DNA from: a virus
Length of the DNA: 13,797 nt
Direction: 5' to 3' (one strand)
Virus genome (UHGV): UHGV-0117953
The notes beneath the pieces are model-generated. The model saw nothing but the letters and a program-made list of their open reading frames with translations. It had not been told where the DNA came from and searched no databases. This document shows, one piece after another, positions 515 through 13,797 of the stretch. A program made the translations under genes and the position numbers. Within the stretch, counting starts at the first letter, position 1, and each line of letters opens with the position of its first letter.

Positions 515-1267
515 ATGGCTGAATACGATAATCACCCATGTTTTCCTCAACCTAGTTCAGATGATATTTCCCTGTGGAAATATATGGATTTTACTAAATT
601 CATGGCATTAGTCACGTATCAAAAAATTTTTCTATGTCGATCTGATCTCTTTGATGATCCTTATGAAGGAACATTCCCAAGAAAAATTATAGAATATGTA
701 CATAATATGAATGAAAGCGACATTGATGAAACTATCTCTGAGTACATCAAGCAGGTGTATAATTTCAACAAGTATGTAAGAAAACATACTTATATAAGTT
801 GTTGGCATGCAAATGAGTTTGAGTCAGCAGCGATGTGGGATCTCTATAGTAAGAATGATGCTTCCGTTGCAATCGAAACCACTTATGCAGAAATAAAAAA
901 TCTATTACCGCCGGAAGCTATGATTGGCTTGGTTAAGTACATTGATTATGATAAGGATGTATTCCCGCTTGATAATACATTTTATCCTTTTACTCATAAA
1001 AGAAAATCATTCGAGCATGAGAGAGAAGTAAGGTTTTTAATTCAAAACTTACCTATCACTGCTGAGGGTACTAGCTTGGATTTTAATAATGCTGTAGCGC
1101 CAAATGTTATTCCGATTGATGTTGATGTTAGTTCATTTGTTAAAAAAGTCCATCTGTCTCCCCGCGCACCTGAATGGATGCTGAATTTGTTAAAAGACAT
1201 TGTGACTAAGTATTCAATAAATGTTGAGGTTAGGCGTTCTAATTTATACATTTCCCCAATTTACTAA
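515..1267 (+). CDS. hypothetical protein, DUF2971-like N-terminal signature
   Basis: 250-aa ORF with ATG start, roughly 35% GC. N-terminal LWKYMDFTKFMALVTYQKIFLCRSDLFDDPYEG resembles the DUF2971 pattern (aromatic-K/H-Y ... hydrophobic ... F/N-D-P-F/Y-E-G) as I recall it. Converges on the integrase 3' end. Confidence 0.6.
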   Translation: MAEYDNHPCFPQPSSDDISLWKYMDFTKFMALVTYQKIFLCRSDLFDDPYEGTFPRKIIEYVHNMNESDIDETISEYIKQVYNFNKYVRKHTYISCWHANEFESAAMWDLYSKNDASVAIETTYAEIKNLLPPEAMIGLVKYIDYDKDVFPLDNTFYPFTHKRKSFEHEREVRFLIQNLPITAEGTSLDFNNAVAPNVIPIDVDVSSFVKKVHLSPRAPEWMLNLLKDIVTKYSINVEVRRSNLYISPIY

Positions 1268-2882: not shown

Positions 2883-3452
2883 CTATTTAACATACTTGAC
2901 TGTTAAACTTATAATTTTACCAATTATTTCAATGTCTTCTATCTTGCATTCGAAGGCTCTGTTTCCACCCTCGACGAAGATTCTTCCACCGGGTAAACGA
3001 GTAATGTCACGGATCGTTATTTCGCCATCAATACTTATTACCCATTTACCATCACGTATATCATCAAATTCCTTATCACAAATAAATTCAGAATTATTAT
3101 CTGTGATTACAAAAAGATTCTTGAATGCCGACGGTAGAAATTCTCTATCGAAAATATAAAAACCGTCTTCACACAAAGCCCCATCAGATAATACATATTT
3201 AGCAACTTCCATAGTATTTGTATTACCTGAAGTTTGCTTTGAACCATGCCCGGTTGTGAGCCAATTAAGCGAAGTGCCTGTTTCAAGGGCGCACTGGATT
3301 ACCCATTCTGCTGGGAATGAGTCACGCATGTAGCGTGTGGCGAGTGTACTTTTAGAGATTCCTAAATGATCGCACAACGCCTGTCGAGTCTTGAATCCAT
3401 AAGCTTCTACCATGCGCTCTATAGCGCCTCGTCCGCCTTTCTCCAAATTCAT
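2883..3452 (-). CDS. cI: CI-type immunity repressor (186/P2-like prophage repressor)
   Basis: N-terminal HTH-like segment TRQALCDHLGISKSTLATRYMRDSFPAEWVIQCALETGTSLNWLTTG. Sits at the immunity position, divergent from the early operon and co-directional with int. ATG at 3452 has GGAG 5 nt upstream; the track start at 3458 is GTG. Confidence 0.75.
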   Translation of the reverse strand: MNLEKGGRGAIERMVEAYGFKTRQALCDHLGISKSTLATRYMRDSFPAEWVIQCALETGTSLNWLTTGHGSKQTSGNTNTMEVAKYVLSDGALCEDGFYIFDREFLPSAFKNLFVITDNNSEFICDKEFDDIRDGKWVISIDGEITIRDITRLPGGRIFVEGGNRAFECKIEDIEIIGKIISLTVKYVK

Positions 3453-3476
3453 GGTCACTCCAAGTGAACTTTTGTC

Positions 3477-3577: not shown

Positions 3578-3799
3578 ATGAGACCTAACATTTCAATCAC
3601 TCTTACCACGCCTCATGTGACTATTGAACGCTATAGCGAGCTGACAGGGCTGTCCATCGATACTATCAATGACATGTTGGCTGATGGACGCCTTATCCGT
3701 CACCGTTTGCGCAAAGATAAAAAACGCGAAAAAGTGATGATCAACATAGCAGCCATGACCGTTGATGCGCTTTCAGAATGCAATCTAAACCTTAATTAG
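3578..3799 (+). CDS. Cox/Apl-like early regulator or excisionase (called by position)
   Basis: 73-aa first ORF of the rightward operon, immediately opposite the repressor. GAGGAA RBS 9 nt upstream. Basic HTH-like segment TIERYSELTGLSIDTINDMLADGRL. Confidence 0.5.
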   Translation: MRPNISITLTTPHVTIERYSELTGLSIDTINDMLADGRLIRHRLRKDKKREKVMINIAAMTVDALSECNLNLN

Positions 3800-3831
3800 T
3801 TCGATTCTGAAATACATCAGAGGCATTGACT

Positions 3832-4341
3832 ATGTTTGATTACCAAGTTTCCAAACATCCACATTTTGATGAAGCCTGTCGTGCATTCGCACTGCGCCAC
3901 AACCTGGTGCAACTGGCAGAACGTGCAGGCATGAATGTGCAGATTCTGCGGAACAAGCTGAACCCAGCTCAACCTCATTTATTAACCGCACCAGAAATCT
4001 GGCTGCTTACCGATCTGACTGAAGATTCAACGCTGGTAGATGGTTTTCTGGCACAGATTCATTGTCTGCCATGTGTACCGATTAATGAGGTGGCAAAAGA
4101 GAAACTGCCACATTACGTCATGAGTGCAACCGCAGAGATCGGGCGTGTTGCTGCAGGTGCGGTATCTGGCGATGTAAAAACCAGTGCAGGCCGTCGTGAT
4201 GCTATCAGCAGCATTAACTCTGTAACACGACTGATGGCGTTGGCTGCTGTTTCATTGCAGGCCCGTTTACAGGCTAACCCTGCGATGGCGAGTGCAGTTG
4301 ATACTGTGACTGGCCTCGGTGCTTCATTCGGTTTGCTGTGA
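3832..4341 (+). CDS. cII: phage regulatory protein CII (186 CII family)
   Basis: 169 aa from ATG 3832 (AGAGG 9 nt upstream; the track start at 3826 is TTG). [25 protein letters not shown]...[24 protein letters not shown] matches my memory of the CII/CP76 family, and the length equals 186 CII. Confidence 0.8.
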
Positions 4342-4348
4342 GGTGCTT

Positions 4349-4645
4349 ATGCTGACGAAAGAACCATCATTTGCATCGCTGCTGGTAAAACAAAGCCCGG
4401 CAATGCACTACGGTCACGGCTGGATCACGGGTGAGGATGGAAAACGCTGGCATCCATGTCATTCACAAGATGAATTGCTGTCTGAATTGACCACGAGGAA
4501 ACGGAGAAAGTCCAAATGTATGCGGCAGAAAGTGAAGTGGTTTATCAGTTTCGTTACAGAGGGGAGAGTTATTCAGTACCTGAAGATGATTTGCTCTGTT
4601 GCTATCCGTCGTTGTCGGGCGATGGTAGCTACTTTTTCACGCTAA
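4349..4645 (+). CDS. hypothetical early protein (real 3' end uncertain)
   Basis: ATG 4349 with GAGGTG RBS directly after the cII stop. The N-terminal roughly 55 aa look protein-like; the C-terminal part overlaps the next ORF in another frame and looks less protein-like. Confidence 0.35.
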   Translation: MLTKEPSFASLLVKQSPAMHYGHGWITGEDGKRWHPCHSQDELLSELTTRKRRKSKCMRQKVKWFISFVTEGRVIQYLKMICSVAIRRCRAMVATFSR

Positions 4646-5703: not shown

Positions 5704-5930
5704 TGGCTGATGCAATGGATCTCGTACAGCAGCGCGTTGAAGAAGAACGCCAGCGCCATATCCGTGCTGCCCGTGCCAAAACGCCGGGCGTGTCCCGCGT
5801 GCTTTGTATTGAGTGTGAAGCACCAATTCCGCCAGCACGACGCCGCGCCATTCCGGGAGTGCAGCTTTGCATTACCTGTCAGGAAATCGCAGAGCTGAAA
5901 GGCAAACATTACAACGGAGGTGCTGTATGA
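5703..5930 (+). CDS. TraR/DksA-family C4 zinc-finger protein
   Basis: 75 aa with CIECEAPIPPARRRAIPGVQLCITCQ (C-x2-C...C-x2-C) after a helical N-terminus, as in phage TraR-like proteins. Translationally coupled on both sides. Confidence 0.75.
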   Translation: MADAMDLVQQRVEEERQRHIRAARAKTPGVSRVLCIECEAPIPPARRRAIPGVQLCITCQEIAELKGKHYNGGAV

Positions 5931-6784
5931 GCACCATCCTGAAATGGGCGGGAAATAAAACCACCATAATGTCCGAACTGAAAAAACATCTTCCTGCTGG
6001 CCCGCGACTGGTTGAACCTTTCGCGGGTTCCTGTGCTGTGATGATGGAGACGGATTATCCCAGCTATCTGGTTGCGGATATTAATCCTGATTTAATCAAC
6101 CTCTATAAAAAGGTTGCCGCTGATTGTGAATCGTTTATATCTCGCGCCAGAGTTTTATTTGAGATCGCAAACAGGGAGGTGGCTTATTACAACATAAGGC
6201 AGGAGTTTAATTACTCAACTGAAATTACTGATTTCATGAAAGCGGTATATTTCCTGTATCTCAATCGTCACGGTTACCGTGGTTTATGTCGCTATAACAA
6301 GAGCGGGCATTTCAACATTCCCTACGGTAATTATAAAAATCCGTATTTCCCTGAAAAAGAAATTCGCGCATTTGCAGAAAAGGCCCAGCGAGCAACGTTT
6401 ATCTGCGCCAGCTTTGATGAAACGCTGGCGATGTTGAAGGCGGGGGATGTGGTGTATTGCGATCCGCCGTATGACGGTACGTTTTCCGGCTATCACACTG
6501 ACGGCTTCACTGAAGATGACCAGTATCACCTGGCATCTGTTCTTGAACATCGGTCATCAGAAGGACATCCGGTCATTGTTTCTAACAGTGACACATCCCT
6601 GATCCGTTCGCTGTATCGCAATTTTACTCACCACTACATCAAGGCAAAACGCAGCATCGGTGTGGCAGCTGGCGAGGGTAAATCAGCAACAGAAATCATT
6701 GCTGTTTCCGGGCCGCGCTGCTGGGTGGGATTTGATTATTCGCGTGGCGTGGATAGTTCTGCCGTGTACGGAGTACGTGCATGA
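5927..6784 (+). CDS. dam: DNA adenine methyltransferase (Dam family)
   Basis: [12 protein letters not shown]-terminus, FAGSCAV AdoMet motif and catalytic DPPY at 6461-6472. Start set to ATG 5927 (GGAGG 6 nt upstream; overlaps the upstream stop). The track start at 5867 is an upstream extension. Confidence 0.9.
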
Positions 6785-9195
6785 GTCATGCCGATATGAA
6801 CAACTGCTGCGGCTTTAACGAAGCTGCCGCATCGTTCTCATGGAACAGCCCGAAAAAGGCCATTAACCCTTATCTGGACCCGGTGGAAGTTGCGCCGGTT
6901 TCTACGCTTTCAAACCTGATCACTCTGTACGCTGCCGATAACGAGCAGGAACAGCTGCGCCGTGAGGCGCTGAGTGATCAGGTCTGGGAGCGTTATTTCT
7001 TTAATGAATCCCGTGATCCTGTCCAGCGCGAAATGGAACAGGATAAGCTCATTAGTCGGGCAAAGCTGGCGCATGAGCAGCAGCGTTTTAATCCGGATAT
7101 GGTCATTCTGGCGGACGTCAACGCCCAGCCTTCCCATATCAGCAAGCCGCTAATGCAACGTATTGAATACTTCAGCAGCCTGGGCAGGCCAAAGGCTTAT
7201 TCCCGCTATTTACGTGAGACGATTAAGCCATGTCTGGAACGACTGGAGCATGTACGCGACAGTCAGCTATCTGCATCTTTTCGCTTTATGGCAAGCCATG
7301 AAGGGCTGGACGGCCTGCTGATCCTGCCTGAAATGAGTCAGGATCAGGTGAAACGCCTGTCCACCCTGGTAGCTGCGCATATGAGTATGTGCCTTGATGC
7401 CGCTTGTGGCGATTTGTATGCCACCGATGACGTTAAGCCAGAAGAAATCCGCAATACATGGGAAAGGGTGGCAGCGGAAACCCTGCGTCTGGATGTCATC
7501 CCGCCTGCGTTTGAGCAACTCCGTCGGAAAAGAAACCGCCGTAAACCCGTGCCCTATCAACTCATTCCGGGTTCGCTGGCGCGTATGTTGTGCGCCGACT
7601 GGTGGTATCGGAAATTATGGAAGATGCGTTGCGAATGGCGGGAAGAGCAGTTGCGTGCTGTCTGCCTTGTCAGCAAAAAAGTATCTCCCTATGTCAGCTA
7701 TGAAGCCGTGTTGCATAAACGTGAGCAGCGCCGTAAGTCGCTGGAGTTTTTCCGTTCTCATGAACTGGTGAACGAAGACGGCGACACGCTGGACATGGAG
7801 GATGTGGTAAACGCCAGCAGCAGCAACCCTGCGCATCGCCGCAATGAGATGATGGCCTGTGTTAAAGGTCTGGAGCTTATCGCGGAAATGCGCGGTGACT
7901 GCGCCGTTTTCTACACCATCACCTGTCCGTCACGTTTCCATTCCACGCTAAATAACGGCAGACCAAACCCGACCTGGACAAACGCGACGGTAAGACAAAG
8001 CAGTGATTATCTGGTCGGCATGTTTGCTGCATTTCGTAAAGCGATGCACAAAGCCGGATTGCGCTGGTATGGCGTGCGGGTGGCTGAGCCGCATCATGAC
8101 GGTACAGTTCACTGGCACCTGTTGTGTTTTATGCGCAAAAAAGAGCGCCGAGCCATTACTGCTTTGTTGCGTAAGTTTGCCATTCGTGAAGACCGCGAGG
8201 AGCTGGGTAATAACACGGGACCACGCTTTAAGTCTGAGCTGATAAACCCGCGCAAAGGTACGCCAACAAGCTACATCGCGAAATACATCAGTAAGAACAT
8301 TGACGGGCGTGGTCTGGCTGGTGAGATCAGCAAGGAAACGGGTAAATCCCTGCGTGATAACGCTGAATACGTTAATGCCTGGGCGTCTCTACATCGTGTT
8401 CAGCAATTCCGCTTCTTTGGCATTCCGGGGCGTCAGGCTTACCGTGAACTGCGATTGCTGGCTGGTCAGGCGGCAAGGCAACAGGGGGACAAAAAAGCAG
8501 GTGCGCCGGTACTGGATAACCCGCGCCTTGATGCCATCCTGGCTGCTGCTGATGCTGGTTGTTTTGCCTCCTACATCATGAAGCAGGGCGGCGTACTGGT
8601 TCCCCGTAAATATCACCTCATCAGAACCGCTTATGAAATCAACGAAGAGCCGACCGCCTATGGCGATCACGGCATTCGTATTTATGGCATCTGGTCACCC
8701 ATTGCAGAGGGCAAGATCTGCACTCATGCAGTGAAGTGGAAAATGGTTCGTAAAGCCGTTGACGTTCAGGAGGCGGCAGCCGACCAGGGCGCTTGCGCCC
8801 CTTGGACTCGTGGCAATAACTGTCCCCTTGCTGAAAATTTGTACCAACAAGGGAAAGACAAATCAGCTGATGGAGATACCAGAACGGATATCACCCGTAT
8901 GGATGACAAGGAGTTGCACGATTACCTGCACAGTATGAGCAAAAAAGAGCGCCGGGAACTGGCAGCAAGGTTACGCCTGGTGAAACCGAAACGGCGTAAA
9001 GACTACAAACAGCGAATTACAGACCATCAACGACAGCAGCTCGTCTATGAACTGAAGTCCAGAGGATTTGATGGCAGCGAGAAAGAGGTCGATTTACTCC
9101 TTCGCGGCGGCAGCATTCCGTCAGGAGCAGGCCTGCGTATCTTCTATCGGAACCAGCGTTTGCAGGAAGATGATAAGTGGCGGAACCTGTATTAA
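6781..9195 (+). CDS. A: replication initiation endonuclease (P2 gpA-like HUH rolling-circle initiator)
   Basis: 804 aa. HUH-type motif H-W-H at 8110-8118 and two-tyrosine motif Y-I-A-K-Y at 8272-8286, comparable to phiX174 gpA Y-V-A-K-Y. Position after dam as in P2/186 early operons. ATG overlaps the dam stop (ATGA). Confidence 0.85.
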
Positions 9196-9289
9196 TTACG
9201 CGGATTAACAATTCGTGCTCTTAATAATACCAGGCATATCAGGCTGATGAACGTAAAAAAACGTTTTACATCAGTAAGATTATTATATA

Positions 9290-9305
9290 CTGTAAATATA
9301 AACAG
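9290..9305 (+). promoter_or_regulatory. LexA box (SOS operator) CTGTAAATATAAACAG
   Basis: Matches CTGT-N8-ACAG with an AT-rich centre. It lies in an AT-rich promoter-like stretch about 45 bp upstream of the RBS and ATG at 9349. Confidence 0.6.
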
Positions 9306-9348
9306 TGGTTATGCATACAGCATTGCTTGTGGTGTTATAGGAGGAAAG

Positions 9349-9537
9349 ATGCAGGACTATTTTTTGGAGTCTTTGAAGCTCCAGCGCATTGATTTTTTTC
9401 TTAAGCTTGTAGCGGCTAGTGAGTGTAGTGATGAAGAGAAGGGGCTGGCTCTGCAGTGGGTTTCTGAATTGACTGATGAACTCATGGCAAAAATCAGAAC
9501 CCACGAATACAACCGCTCAATGGATGTCATCAGCTGA
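9349..9537 (+). CDS. small SOS-operon protein (possible Tum-like N-terminal module)
   Basis: 62 aa from ATG 9349 with AGGAGG at 9339-9344. The track start at 9247 would run through the promoter and LexA box. Immediately followed by the DinI-like gene. Confidence 0.45.
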   Translation: MQDYFLESLKLQRIDFFLKLVAASECSDEEKGLALQWVSELTDELMAKIRTHEYNRSMDVIS

Positions 9538-9547
9538 GGTGACTTTT

Positions 9548-9781
9548 ATGCGCATTGAAATAATGATCGATAAAGAGCAGAAGATTAGCCAGTCTACACT
9601 GGACGCCCTTGAATCCGAGCTTTACCGCAATCTGCGCCCCCTGTATCCCAAAACGGTAATTCGTATCCGCAAAGGTAGCTCTAACGGTGTGGAACTGACC
9701 GGACTGCAACAGGACGAAGAAAGAAAACAAGTGATGAAAATTATGCAGAAGGTGTGGGAAGACGACAGCTGGCTGCATTAA
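9548..9781 (+). CDS. DinI-like protein (phage Tum/DinI family)
   Basis: 77 aa: MRIEIMIDKEQ...LDALESELYRNLRPLYP...IRIRKGSSNGVELTG...KQVMKIMQKVWEDDSWLH parallels E. coli DinI (MRIEVTIAK...ETWESADDWF). GAGGTG RBS 5 nt upstream of ATG 9548. Confidence 0.75.
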   Translation: MRIEIMIDKEQKISQSTLDALESELYRNLRPLYPKTVIRIRKGSSNGVELTGLQQDEERKQVMKIMQKVWEDDSWLH

Positions 9782-10051
9782 GAAACGTTGCTGGCGTCTG
9801 AACTTGCTTCTGGCGTCAGCAAGGTTGAACAACGAGCTATGCGAGGCGTTAGTGTCAATTTGTTACCTTAACCACTATATATGCCAGGAAATTAACAGTT
9901 CTTAAGAAACCGCTTGCATGATCGAGCGCATTGAACTTAAGTTTAAGTAACGAAATCAACAGATGATATTGTTGTCTAAATTTTAAAGATAATCTGTTGA
10001 GGTTGTAGGCGTCGGAGTGTAGACTTCCGCGCCATGTGAAAAGGGGGAGTT

Positions 10052-10267
10052 ATGTCAAGCATCGCCGCATTTAGCCTGGGTAACCCAGTTGAACGTCTGG
10101 CAAGGGTTCTTAAAGAGAACCAGGACAAACTCAATCTTAGTAAAGATGGTTTTGTGTCCGTAGACTTGTCTAACAAAAGAGCAATGGATGCCATCAAGGC
10201 ACAGATGGATAAGCTTGAAGGCATCAAAACGAGCACTGTAAAAGAGAAAACTAATAGAACCAGATAA
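10052..10267 (+). CDS. small soluble protein, first gene of a coupled two-gene cargo operon
   Basis: 71 aa, ATG with GGGGGAG RBS. Helical and charged. Its stop overlaps the start of the next gene (TAATG). Confidence 0.5.
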   Translation: MSSIAAFSLGNPVERLARVLKENQDKLNLSKDGFVSVDLSNKRAMDAIKAQMDKLEGIKTSTVKEKTNRTR

Positions 10268-11109
10268 TGGCAACATTACTTTTAGCAGTGATTTTGGTTA
10301 GTGGTTTTATTTATGTAAACCTATCACTTTCAACAAGATACCGATATAAGCGTTCCAACGGCTGGGACGCTTATTTTTTTGTGGCTGCCTGGGGTATCGT
10401 TTTTTTTCTCCTTGGCGGTTTTTTCACCTTTATTTTGAACGTCAGCGGAGGGTTTCGTTGGCTGGCTAATGCCTTGAATCTAACACCTGACAGTTTTAAT
10501 GGCATGTTGTCTTCATCGAAAGACAAACTTCAAAGAATAAATGAAATCAAACAGATAGCATGGGTTATGATTTCAATTGTCCTCGCTGCGATTTCAGGTT
10601 TTGGAAATAAGTTACGCACATCACGTGGAGATCGTCGCTGGGATGCCTTAGCTAAAGCTGTGGGTAATAACGCTTTCGAATCATTACTTATGGAAGCGTC
10701 CGCAAGACAGTTTCCGATCATAGCAACTCTGTCGTCTCGCAAAATCTATGTTGGCCTTGTTACTTGTCCGGCGTTAGAAAACGGGCTTTCAGAGCACCTT
10801 GAACTTCTCCCGATGTTAAGCGGATATCGGGATAAAGATGATCTAACGATTAGTATCACGACTAACTATCACCAACATTATCTTGATAGTGGTGTGATAA
10901 GTGGAATGTCTCGGCTTAATATCGAAGATTTCCGTGTGCTCATACCAAAAGATGAGGTTGAAACAATTTCGTTTTTTGATACTGAGACATATAACAAATT
11001 TAAAGAAAATGAAGCCAGGGATAGAAAGAACTGTCGAAAGATTGGTAGTAAAAGTGCATCTTCGCGCAGCAAGCGTGCAGCAGATGCTGAGTCAAATGAT
11101 CGTGCATGA
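10267..11109 (+). CDS. membrane protein (3 predicted TM helices plus about 170-aa C-terminal domain), function unknown
   Basis: 280 aa. Hydrophobic segments at about residues 4-21, 35-57 and 96-112, followed by a soluble charged domain. Lower GC than the flanking phage core. Translationally coupled to the 71-aa ORF. Confidence 0.65.
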   Translation: MATLLLAVILVSGFIYVNLSLSTRYRYKRSNGWDAYFFVAAWGIVFFLLGGFFTFILNVSGGFRWLANALNLTPDSFNGMLSSSKDKLQRINEIKQIAWVMISIVLAAISGFGNKLRTSRGDRRWDALAKAVGNNAFESLLMEASARQFPIIATLSSRKIYVGLVTCPALENGLSEHLELLPMLSGYRDKDDLTISITTNYHQHYLDSGVISGMSRLNIEDFRVLIPKDEVETISFFDTETYNKFKENEARDRKNCRKIGSKSASSRSKRAADAESNDRA

Positions 11110-11157
11110 CTATGCTGCATGAGATCGCATGATCGTTTGAGGATCATTTTTGCTGAG

Positions 11158-11181
11158 GCCCGCCAGAACTGGCGGGCTTTT
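11158..11181 (+). terminator. rho-independent terminator
   Basis: gcccgccag-aa-ctggcgggc (9-bp GC-rich stem) followed by tttt at 11178-11181, 50 bp after the membrane-protein stop. Confidence 0.6.
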
Positions 11182-11226
11182 GCGTAGATCATGCAACTGC
11201 ATGAAAACCACTACATAAAGCGGGCA

Positions 11227-11245
11227 GGCGTGGCGGGGATACGAG
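11227..11245. other. cos-like G/C-rich motif GGCGTGGCGGGGATACGAG
   Basis: The first 13 nt match what I recall of the 19-nt cohesive ends of 186/P2 (GGCG[A/T]GGCGGGGA...). Located between the early-region cargo and the packaging genes, where cos sits in a P2/186 prophage. Confidence 0.35.
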
Positions 11246-11362
11246 CGCGCGCAAAACCTGTTGTTTAAGTGGTTTAGATCGGATAATTTATATGTTGTCC
11301 ACTTGAATTAAAATTATGCAATGTTTTATATCTGATTCATTTATATAAGTTAGGTAAGATAG

Positions 11363-12367
11363 ATGACAGACGAAGAATTAAAAGAACAGCATTCAATTTA
11401 CGGCTCAGTTGCGGAATTGTTCAGACGAGTTATGGTTGAGCAAATTGATGTTATTTTGTCGGAGAATAAATTGTCTTTAGGGGTTCCAATTGAAAGCCGT
11501 GTCAAAACATTAAGTTCTATTATTAATAAGGATAACCGAAAACCTCTAAAGATTGAGTCAATAGTTGACTTGGATGATTATGTTGGAATCCGATTAATAA
11601 TGCTATTTAAGCGAGATGTTGAAAAGGTTATATCTTGTCTGAAAGAACATTTCATTATTTTGAAGCAAGAGAATAAACTTGATGAACTGGATGAGGATAG
11701 ATTTGGGTACCAATCTCATCATTATGTAATACAACCTCCAGAAGAATGGCTAAGAGTTCCATCCTTTAGTGATTTTAAAAATATGAAAGTGGAGGTGCAA
11801 ATACGAACGCTTTCTCAGCATATTTGGGCTGCAGCATCTCATAAACTGCAATACAAAAAAGAGCAAAGTGTTCCACTTCCTCTTAGGCGAGCAATTAATA
11901 GAGTATCTGCTTTGCTTGAAGTCGTTGATTTCGAATTTGAAAGAGTGTTATCAGAGCGTGAGGGGTATGTTGAGACAAGCAGACTAGATAGAGGAACTAT
12001 GCTTGACGTAGAATTGCTGAAAATGATAGCTGCAAGTGAATTACCACCTGATAATAAATCTGATGATGAAAATTATGATGATTTGCTTTCTGAATTAATT
12101 AAAAATAAAATTATAACTGTAGGTGAGTGTATTGACGCTTTAAAGAGTGGGCTACCTTCGGCTATTGACGAAGATAAGGCAATGGTTAGAAGAATTATAA
12201 GTAATGAAGATGACTATGATGATGAGTCTGAGTTAAAGCGTGCTAGGTTAGGGGTGTTTTTCACTCATGTAGGGTTAATTCGGACTGCGATTGCTAATTC
12301 TATGGGGGCTTCTTATATTAGAAATCAGACCGAAGGAATGGATGTTTATGATGATTCAGAAGAATAA
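11363..12367 (+). CDS. RelA/SpoT-homolog nucleotidyltransferase (toxSAS-like) with an acidic C-terminal domain
   Basis: 334 aa, about 30-38% GC. Synthetase-fold motifs: R46-x-K48...S...K, D-x-x-G75-x-R77 (11585-11593), G-Y-Q-S-H-H (115-120), E-V-Q-I-R-T (11792-11809) and H-I-W-A-A-A-S-H-K-L-Q-Y-K. C-terminal roughly 150 aa are strongly acidic with no Cys cluster. Own AT-rich promoter region and AGGT RBS. Confidence 0.8.
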   Translation: MTDEELKEQHSIYGSVAELFRRVMVEQIDVILSENKLSLGVPIESRVKTLSSIINKDNRKPLKIESIVDLDDYVGIRLIMLFKRDVEKVISCLKEHFIILKQENKLDELDEDRFGYQSHHYVIQPPEEWLRVPSFSDFKNMKVEVQIRTLSQHIWAAASHKLQYKKEQSVPLPLRRAINRVSALLEVVDFEFERVLSEREGYVETSRLDRGTMLDVELLKMIAASELPPDNKSDDENYDDLLSELIKNKIITVGECIDALKSGLPSAIDEDKAMVRRIISNEDDYDDESELKRARLGVFFTHVGLIRTAIANSMGASYIRNQTEGMDVYDDSEE

Positions 12368-12415: not shown

Positions 12416-13438
12416 TTAATCTAAGTTGTATGGCTGGAAAGTAATGACATTTTCTCCTAGCCATACATTTATCTCGAATAATCTCTTCTGCAGCGGGATC
12501 AGTTCATTTCTCACAAAAACTTTACTCGCTTTCTCCACATCCCCAAATCCACCAACATTATTCGGCATAATCCCCATCATTTGCGGCGGCACTCGGTGTG
12601 CTGCCATCATGTCGTCCCGGCTCACGTTCTTGATATTCAGAAACTCATCCTTCGCTGCGACTTCTGATAACGGGATAATCTGAAGCCCGTCTTTTTTGCC
12701 GTTAGGCGAGTACATAAACAGATTACGGAAGTTGCCTGGACCTTTGGCGCTTTTCATCGCGTTACGGAGGTTGTTTACATCCTCCTGGTTCTGCGCGGCG
12801 TCGGTCATGTACATGATGAAGCCTGCATGACTGCCGTTGATGTAATACTTGCGGCGGAACAGCGTGGCGGATTCGTTGAGCAGAGCTGACGGAATGGCAG
12901 AAAGGTAACCCGGCAGACCATAAATCTCCTGGTTGATATCCGGCTCCATCAGGTGGAAGACATTACCTTTTGTGAACTGATACGGCTGTGTCGTCAGGCT
13001 GTATTGCACAAACCAGTATGTTTCAAGGTCAAGTCCGCGCCGGGTGTATTTTGCCAGTGCAGGTTCCAGCGAAATAACTTCACCAAAGCGGTTCGTGCGT
13101 TTCTCCAGGTAGGCGTTACCAAAAACCAGATAGTCCTGCACAAAACGGGTAAATGCCTGCTGGCTGAGAAGGCGATGTGGAATATAGGTACTGCTGATAA
13201 TGTCACGCTTAACACTGATCGGGGAGCTGTGGTGCACGGCGGCGCGGAAGGTGCGCGCCAGTCCGTCAAAGCTGACGGGCGGCTCATACCAGCGATCCAT
13301 CTGTACGCATTCCACATAGTCCAGCAGTTCGCGGCGGTCCAGTACAGGAATGGGATCACCAAAGCTGAAAGCCTCCGCAACGGATTTTTTAGTTTCTTCT
13401 GCAGTTACGGTTTCGTCTGGCGCGATATGTTCTTTCAT
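12416..13438 (-). CDS. portal vertex protein (P2 gpQ-like)
   Basis: 340 aa from ATG 13438 (the track start at 13441 is TTG). Length, and a start sharing one base with the upstream terminase stop, match the P2 Q/P arrangement as I recall it. Confidence 0.85.
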   Translation of the reverse strand: MKEHIAPDETVTAEETKKSVAEAFSFGDPIPVLDRRELLDYVECVQMDRWYEPPVSFDGLARTFRAAVHHSSPISVKRDIISSTYIPHRLLSQQAFTRFVQDYLVFGNAYLEKRTNRFGEVISLEPALAKYTRRGLDLETYWFVQYSLTTQPYQFTKGNVFHLMEPDINQEIYGLPGYLSAIPSALLNESATLFRRKYYINGSHAGFIMYMTDAAQNQEDVNNLRNAMKSAKGPGNFRNLFMYSPNGKKDGLQIIPLSEVAAKDEFLNIKNVSRDDMMAAHRVPPQMMGIMPNNVGGFGDVEKASKVFVRNELIPLQKRLFEINVWLGENVITFQPYNLD

Positions 13439-13797
13439 CAAAAAATCTCCACAATATTGCTGGTATTGGCGGATTCGCCCTGCAGCGGTTCGTTAAACAG
13501 AGCGTGCATCGTTGCCCAGGCCAGATCGGCGTGGCTGGCTTCTTCGCTGCGGCTGGCTTCATAGGTCGGGCGGTTGCCGCTGGCGGTGGTGGCGCGACGG
13601 ATTGCCATAAATGACTGCGCTATGTCGGTGTGTCCGGCGTCAAACTCCAGACGGCGGTGGCTGATAATGTCGTAGGCCTTGAGTACCAGGGCGTTTTTAA
13701 CGTTGGGGTTATACCCAGGGCGGCGGAGCGATGAGTTCTAACGGGATCGTGGTTGATGCGCATCAGCATACTGGCGTCCTGAAAGGCGGCGATACAA
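13438..13797 (-). CDS. terminase large (ATPase) subunit, 3' end only; truncated by the window, with an apparent frame change
   Basis: The minus-strand frame ending at TGA 13438-13440 is open only up to a TAG at 13738-13740 (...LAWATMHALFNEPLQGESANTSNIVEIF*). Upstream, a different minus frame is open from 13797 down to 13623 (...IAAFQDASMLMRINHDP...). Confidence 0.5.

Follow-up and report, generated by a model that had tools for sequence, protein, structure and literature searches.

The window, by which we mean the whole 13,797-nt stretch of viral DNA analyzed here, contains a module of two small genes led by a LexA box. The module lies 3′ of the replicase gene gpA and 5′ of the portal gene Q in a P2-family genome that also carries CI, Apl and CII genes of the 186 type (Table 1). 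The original prediction had placed a LexA box with the core CTGTAAATATAAACAG at 9290–9305, upstream of a 62-aa ORF (ORF1) with an AGGAGG ribosome-binding site and of a 77-aa ORF (ORF2) starting 10 nt past the ORF1 stop. Inspection of the sequence revealed that the box matched base for base and that both ORFs, as well as the Shine-Dalgarno (SD) sequence of ORF1, were present as described.

Table 1 Positions of the SOS module, its parts and the surrounding genes in the window
Feature	Position	Strand	Basis or remark
Integrase	1438–2643	−	
CI immunity repressor, 186-type	2883–3458	−	Matches phrog_4 transcriptional repressor; presumed TumA target
Apl/Cox	3578–3799		PHROG match
CII	3826–4341		PHROG match
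Fil-like cell-division inhibitor	4319–4645		
Dam methylase	5867–6784		
gpA replicase	6781–9195		Pfam Phage_GPA, E 1.8e-126
SOS module (whole)	9265–9822		
−35-like hexamer TTTACA of the putative SOS promoter (186 p95 equivalent)	9265–9270	+	Positional homology only
−10-like hexamer TACTGT (putative), left half of LexA box 1	9288–9293	+	From the layout in the 186 record
LexA box 1 (strong), TACTGTAAATATAAACAGTG	9288–9307	+	22.8 bits
LexA box 2 (weak), CAGTGGTTATGCATACAGCA	9303–9322	+	12.3 bits; 5-nt overlap with box 1, centres 15 bp apart
SD AGGAGG of tumA	9339–9344	+	Read from sequence; 4 nt ahead of ATG 9349
tumA (ORF1), 62 aa	9349–9537	+	ATG 9349, TGA 9535–9537; homologue, by profile methods, of the 186 Tum N-terminal part
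Small stem-loop over tumA stop and tumB SD, then TTTTAT	9526–9543	+	Terminator-like scan; 6 pairs, loop 6
SD GAGGTGA of tumB	9536–9542	+	Read from sequence; overlaps tumA stop TGA; GAGG to ATG 9548, 8 nt
tumB (ORF2), 77 aa, DinI-like	9548–9781	+	ATG 9548; homologue of the 186 Tum C-terminal part and of its internally initiated 76-aa product
GC-rich hairpin directly 3′ of tumB	9788–9822	+	RNA fold −29.1 kcal/mol, z −2.07
Variable cargo	10052–12367		
Portal Q	12416–13441	−	

The CI repressor of the window shares 33% identity with 186 CI along its entire length (E 9e-38) and is 100% identical, over 188 aa, to the CI of DuoHS, a prophage of E. coli HS. The 651-bp region at 9200–9850 is 100% identical to the chromosome of E. 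coli strain GF130, and matches to this region were found in 1125 of 5426 complete E. coli genomes. Among the potential RNA structures of the module, the small stem-loop over the tumA stop represents a single call at about the level of shuffled sequence (0.8 expected); translational coupling and weak attenuation are possibilities for it. The GC-rich hairpin 3′ of tumB occupies the place of the partial terminator t95a in 186, and was rejected as a canonical intrinsic terminator, being without a U-run and reaching a z of only −2.07. A downstream ORF of 280 aa was also rejected as a third gene of the SOS operon, since it showed no similarity to either 186 orf97 or Fels-2 STM2726.

Operator and promoter of the module

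The core sequence alone is not remarkable, because CTGTAAATATAAACAG, although the sole CTGT-N8-ACAG in the 13.8-kb window, compares with an expectation of 0.16, and at least one such core appeared in 28 of 200 shuffles. We then scored the window with a LexA weight matrix trained on a set of 26 E. coli operators; the matrix is approximate, as the ColE1 operator was the only one confirmed against a database record. The full site TACTGTAAATATAAACAGTG (box 1) scored 22.8 bits and was the top LexA site of the window. It exceeded 21 of the 26 training sites, and 100 shuffles of the window reached no more than 18.4 bits, so that the predicted box passed matrix scoring. Box 1 is located 42 nt 5′ of the tumA ATG. 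Its sequence is identical in Fels-2, DuoHS and 813R9, and an equivalent box is also found in 186, PSP3, and the Yersinia and ESSI-2-type phages. In total, all nine relatives examined carried a LexA box of 22–29 bits at 19–49 nt 5′ of the tumA-like start. These relatives represent several Peduoviridae genera and their upstream sequences have diverged apart from the LexA box; this retention of the box within otherwise diverged sequence argues that box 1 is more than a chance match.

Comparison with the annotated p95 promoter of 186 revealed a similar arrangement: the window contains TTTACA-17 nt-TACTGT, which resembles TTCACA-18 nt-TACTGT of p95, and in the 186 record the six bases of the p95 −10 hexamer form the beginning of the LexA site. 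The 22.8-bit box of tumA is likewise situated in the predicted promoter, in the same layout as the annotated p95/LexA site. Note that a sigma-70 consensus scan of positions 9100–10100 called no promoter; the hexamers given for the window thus rest on the analogy with p95, and their exact positions are putative.

The original prediction named one LexA box; a second, weaker box, CAGTGGTTATGCATACAGCA, overlaps it. Box 2 ranked third in the window with 12.3 bits, under the weakest training site (13.4 bits) and inside the range of the shuffles (up to 18.4 bits). Its counterparts score 15.0 bits in Fels-2, 16.9 bits in DuoHS and 16.7 bits in the Klebsiella phage ST512-KPC3phi13.6, in which the flanks have diverged, and a counterpart is missing in 186, PSP3, and the Yersinia and ESSI-2-type phages. 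Box 2 may be occupied by LexA as well. Elsewhere in the window, a strong LexA-like box was observed at 2517–2536, in the spacer of a promoter-like site (TTGACA-17-GAAAAT) approximately 30 nt 5′ of the position where the integrase gene likely starts.

Relationship of the two ORFs to Tum and DinI

ORF2 matched the DinI family of Pfam (PF06183) with an E-value of 3.1e-23 and 82.3 bits (cut-off 24.2), its residues 14–76 covering profile positions 1–63 of 63, and it matched positions 71–148 of the 151 positions of phrog_189. Alignment bore out the predicted relationship of ORF2 to both 186 Tum and E. coli DinI: the match to Tum was gapless over Tum residues 71–145 with 41% identity (E 8e-25), and the match to DinI showed 29% identity (E 2e-13). 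ORF2 also matched the DinI structure 1GHH in the PDB (E 1.6e-6) and is 77% identical to PSP3 TumB. A 76-aa ‘truncated Tum’, to which the 186 record assigns modulation of SOS induction, is initiated internally at the GTG for Tum residue 71. The score of ORF2 against the NCBIfam DinI equivalog NF007893 was below the cut-off (43.8 vs 111 bits), and for this reason biochemical equivalence of TumB to DinI is not assured; as judged by sequence, TumB is DinI-like and not an orthologue of the chromosomal DinI. Its homology to DinI, together with the 186 annotation ‘modulates SOS induction’, suggests that TumB may modulate the activity of RecA filaments.

ORF1 had no match in Pfam, NCBIfam or PADLOC, and belongs to phrog_698 (E 3.6e-38), a well-populated family of proteins of approximately 63 aa. 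The expected similarity of ORF1 to 186 Tum was upheld by profile methods (hhalign and PHROG); pairwise BLASTP gave no match. With a family profile made from a 27-sequence alignment of diverged ORF1 relatives, drawn from an exhaustive search, hhalign aligned residues 5–45 with residues 5–45 of Tum (probability 94.5%, E 7.6e-8). In the PHROG comparison, residues 1–70 of Tum matched phrog_698 (E 6.7e-6), and ORF1 matched phrog_8554 and phrog_1993, both of which are also matched by 186 Tum and PSP3 TumA. A stand-alone 60-aa ‘tum protein’ of a Yersinia phage matched both phrog_698 (E 1.2e-9) and the Tum family phrog_189 (E 1.6e-6), and was detected by BLASTP with ORF1 (E 9e-8). By these profile methods, ORF1 is judged to be homologous to the N-terminal part of Tum. 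The AlphaFold2 model of ORF1 is a two-helix hairpin (helices 2–23 and 28–61; mean pLDDT 85.8), and by analogy with Tum, TumA would be an antirepressor binding CI directly. In most records, homologues of ORF1 are annotated as ‘hypothetical protein’ or, wrongly, as ‘levan regulatory protein’.

Both genes have been described before in related phages. In the PSP3 record, tumA codes for 60 aa and is labelled ‘similar to 5′ end 186 tum; UV induction of prophage’, and its partner tumB carries the description ‘similar to dinI and 3′ end of 186 tum’; the Fels-2 record contains the same gene pair. The statement that PSP3 TumA is an antirepressor reportedly originates in a personal communication that Bunny et al. 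2002, the original source for the divided tum of Fels-2, cited. Lemire et al. 2011 described tum of Fels-2 and PSP3 as “split into two halves”, with the upstream PSP3 gene as the antirepressor (PMC3121763), and the same paper cites Shearwin et al. 1998 for the binding of 186 Tum to CI, which blocks operator binding. ORF1 shares 98% identity with both Fels-2 STM2728 and ECHS_RS04495 of DuoHS, differing from the latter by one residue. In DuoHS, either deletion of tum (ECHS_RS04495) or a lexA(Ind-) mutation resulted in no mitomycin-C lysis (PMC12055606); ECHS_RS04495 is a 62-aa gene directly 5′ of a DinI-like gene (ECHS_RS04500). In Salmonella TA100, which carries Fels-2, STM2726-STM2727-STM2728 act as one operon, and STM2727 was induced 5.5- to 14.8-fold with the mutagen MX (PMC2225428). 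The requirement of both the 62-aa gene and cleavable LexA for induction, as well as the damage induction of the operon, has been shown in these near-identical orthologues. The module is an already described DNA-damage switch, and its split-tum arrangement has long been known.

These results bear on which of the two proteins is the inducer. The Pfam domain is found only in ORF2, and the name ‘levan regulatory’ is attached to some ORF1 homologues, as would be expected if the DinI-like ORF2 were the inducer and ORF1 an unrelated small gene. We consider this assignment very unlikely: ORF1 and the Tum N-terminal part are homologous, deletion of the 62-aa gene alone ends DuoHS induction, and the 186 record credits inhibition of CI DNA binding to full-length Tum only, with the DinI-like truncated products modulating SOS induction. 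Furthermore, Yersinia, ESSI-2-type and Cronobacter phages possess the LexA box and a tumA-like gene without a DinI gene. A role of TumA as the inducer and of TumB as an accessory would fit these distant, DinI-less Peduoviridae.

Two separate genes or one interrupted tum

The original prediction offered two readings of the split, a true two-protein arrangement or a frameshifted tum. Analysis of substitutions against a Klebsiella phage at a pS of approximately 0.6 gave pN/pS values of 0.14 for ORF1 and 0.16 for ORF2, showing purifying selection on both. Among 66 representatives of the ORF1 family, almost all were 35–133 aa long, and none had the ORF1 domain at the N-terminus of a Tum-like protein of approximately 146 aa. 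The spacer between the ORFs measures 10 nt in the window and 11 nt in the Klebsiella phage ST512-KPC3phi13.6; that of PSP3 is 3 nt long, and the PSP3 genes are in frame and separated by one stop codon. Because of this conservation and selection, the evidence favours a genuine, functional and conserved two-gene state, so that the first of the two readings held and the second did not.

Upstream of its ATG, the frame of ORF2 continues without a stop as far as 9473, across the last 21 ORF1 codons, and a 1-nt deletion at 64 positions within 9471–9537 would produce a protein of 143 aa, nearly the size of Tum (146 aa); the anticipated fusion by a single-base change is therefore possible. The same open frame would allow ribosomes to undergo a programmed +1 frameshift close to where ORF1 ends, by which a Tum-sized fusion would be made beside the two separate proteins. 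However, the frame relation varies among relatives along with the spacer (10, 11 and 3 nt), which argues against a conserved programmed frameshift, no conserved slippery motif was seen, and several relatives have tumA without any DinI gene; we therefore assign this mechanism only a very slight chance. Least probable is a single fused tum as in 186 that was frameshifted recently and is now decaying: although ORF1 and ORF2 are in different frames and would be fused into 143 aa by a 1-nt deletion, relatives usually have two ORFs (PSP3, Fels-2, DuoHS, 813R9 and Klebsiella phages), the module is found in 1125 of 5426 complete E. coli genomes, family representatives are approximately 60 aa, both ORFs are under purifying selection at a pS of approximately 0.6, ORF2 has its own SD and ATG, and the 62-aa gene works in DuoHS.

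Proposed induction switch and comparison with known systems

We conclude, with a probability of about 0.92, that the module is the tumA–tumB SOS operon of a Fels-2/DuoHS-type, 186-like P2-family E. coli prophage. Homology, the 186-type context and the near-identical orthologues all support the predicted SOS induction switch consisting of a LexA box and Tum/DinI-like ORFs. In the undamaged lysogen, LexA would be bound to box 1, overlapping the −10 region of the promoter, and the operon would be silent; LexA probably also binds the weaker box 2 in colicin style, and both boxes together would silence the operon. Upon DNA damage, active RecA would promote self-cleavage of LexA, and tumA–tumB would be transcribed. 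TumA, as a predicted two-helix hairpin, would bind the 186-type CI and stop its operator binding; with CI off, the early lytic promoter would fire and the prophage would be induced. TumB, translated from its own SD, would most likely bind to RecA filaments and adjust how strong the SOS signal is or how long it lasts, and would be the counterpart of the internally initiated C-terminal Tum products of 186.

The sequence also raises the possibility, which we regard as tentative, that in the DuoHS-type sublineage LexA controls induction at two points, the double operator of tumA–tumB and the int-proximal box. A colicin-style double operator on tumA–tumB, if true, would lead to very tight repression and late firing, and if both LexA points work, the SOS response would directly govern derepression as well as excision. 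We found no description of either the double operator or the int-proximal LexA box in the searchable literature, which did not cover Bunny et al. 2002, and a search of the literature for integrase promoters under LexA control in P2-like prophages also found nothing. The locus provides no new biology beyond the published work on 186, PSP3, Fels-2 and DuoHS; only the putative colicin-like double operator and the LexA-like box upstream of the integrase may be mildly new. The main value lies in annotation, as the 62-aa gene deserves the name tumA and its partner the name tumB, and this 62-aa antirepressor would make approximately one-fifth of complete E. coli genomes carriers of an SOS-inducible P2-like prophage. 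Both extra LexA boxes are small, testable additions to the model of prophage induction timing.

Among known systems, PSP3, Fels-2 (STM2728/STM2726.1) and DuoHS have the same LexA-box-led two-gene operon, located after gpA and before a variable region and portal Q. The promoter/operator of Fels-2 and DuoHS is approximately 98% identical to that of the window, but box 2 of the window contains changes that lower its score relative to both. PSP3 TumA is far diverged from ORF1 (hhalign E 0.005, probability 7%), and because this direct profile match is weak, homology between the two is only transitive via 186 Tum. The genes of PSP3 are separated by an in-frame stop and 3 nt, whereas those of the window are 10 nt apart and out of frame, and the downstream cargo genes in the window differ from those of PSP3, Fels-2 and DuoHS.

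The module also resembles the p95 operon of 186 in its LexA-repressed promoter, with a −10 region overlapping the box, and in the 186-type CI as the presumed target. The N-terminal antirepressor part of 186 Tum corresponds to ORF1 and the C-terminal DinI-like part to ORF2, and in 186 the DinI-like part is also translated alone, from an internal GTG with its own SD. In contrast to the one fused polypeptide with nested products in 186, the window has two separate genes; it has two overlapping LexA boxes instead of a single one, and no counterpart of orf97.

The Gifsy operons of Salmonella, dinI-gfoA and dinI-gftA, similarly combine a LexA-controlled DinI homologue with a small antirepressor acting against the prophage repressor (PMC3121763). 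Their order is reversed, with dinI first, and their antirepressors and repressors are those of lambdoid prophages. E. coli DinI (1GHH) has the same length as ORF2, and both match PF06183; unlike DinI, ORF2 is phage-borne and co-transcribed with an antirepressor, and its RecA binding is putative.

As for the operator, the double-SOS-box architecture of colicin genes has been described (PMC2994835), and for ColE1 we confirmed in the plasmid record that the operator immediately precedes the coding sequence of colicin E1. The double box of the window would control a prophage antirepressor and not a colicin, its box 2 is weaker (12.3 bits), and its occupancy by two LexA dimers is putative. The geometry is nevertheless the same, as the cea operator of ColE1 has two LexA boxes with a 5-nt overlap and centres 15 bp apart, and by our own count the operators of Fels-2 and ColE1 agree at 31 of 35 positions.

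A LexA-like box upstream of the integrase gene

Scanning of the window with an approximate LexA weight matrix revealed a strong LexA-like box near int, the integrase gene, scoring 21.4 bits against a maximum of 18.4 bits in shuffled sequences. The box lies inside the spacer of a promoter-like element (TTGACA-17 nt-GAAAAT), about 30 nt from the likely integrase start downstream. It is kept at 21–24 bits in the E. coli HS prophage DuoHS, Klebsiella phage 4LV2017 and phage 813R9, where the flanking sequence has diverged more. The box is missing in Fels-2 and 186, in which int directly follows the repressor gene cI. The arrangement suggests SOS control of integrase expression through this candidate operator.

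The true integrase start is likely the ATG at 2487 on the minus strand, which is preceded by GGAGGG. The 401-aa ORF called from 2643 is probably overlong, since the integrase PHROG match begins only at residue 54. A 63-aa ORF sets int apart from the cI transcription unit, and DuoHS carries an equally sized ORF at this position. By eye, its product begins with a hydrophobic stretch, contains several cysteines and resembles a moron of the secreted or lipoprotein kind.

Predicted sites and ORFs in the window, with their coordinates
Feature	Position	Strand	Remarks
250-aa ORF	515-1267	+	past the prophage's integrase end
LexA-like box, strong	2517-2536	−	read on this strand as CACTGGTTATACATACAGTG
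63-aa ORF	2676-2867	−	between cI and int
LexA box 2, weaker	9303-9322		overlaps box 1 by 5 nt
71-aa ORF	10052-10267	+	phrog_9843, unknown function
280-aa ORF	10267-11109	+	phrog_3630, unknown function
334-aa protein	11363-12367	+	variable region between tumB and portal gene Q

Cargo and candidate defence genes

The 71-aa and 280-aa ORFs lie directly 3' of the SOS module (tumA and tumB) with overlapping stop and start codons. Co-transcription with tumAB is possible. Neither ORF is related to 186 orf97 or Fels-2 STM2726, the genes that fill this position in those two phages.

The 334-aa protein carries a RelA/SpoT small-alarmone-synthetase domain at its N-terminus (Pfam, 7.6e-20; YjbM structures, 2e-16) and also matches PDC-S33, a candidate defence family in PADLOC (1.8e-16); it may be a toxic defence or toxin gene of the alarmone-synthetase type. 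The 250-aa ORF matches another PADLOC candidate defence family, PDC-S31 (3.6e-23), as well as phrog_34615.

TumA, TumB and the tumA operator

Many database entries start the tumA ORF at an upstream ATG (9247-9537; 96 aa) or name it 'levan regulatory protein'. These are probably mis-annotations, since the family alignment begins at the Met of the 62-aa form and the start of the 96-aa version falls 5' of both promoter and operator. Comparison with PSP3 showed that the DinI-like TumB is well conserved (77% identity to the window protein), but that TumA is barely recognisable; this pattern fits divergence of the antirepressor in step with the immunity repressor, its DinI-like partner remaining constant.

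The weaker box 2 scores higher in Fels-2, DuoHS and one Klebsiella phage than in the window copy. Together with box 1, the strong tumA operator, it forms a pair of predicted sites resembling the double operator of ColE1 colicin.
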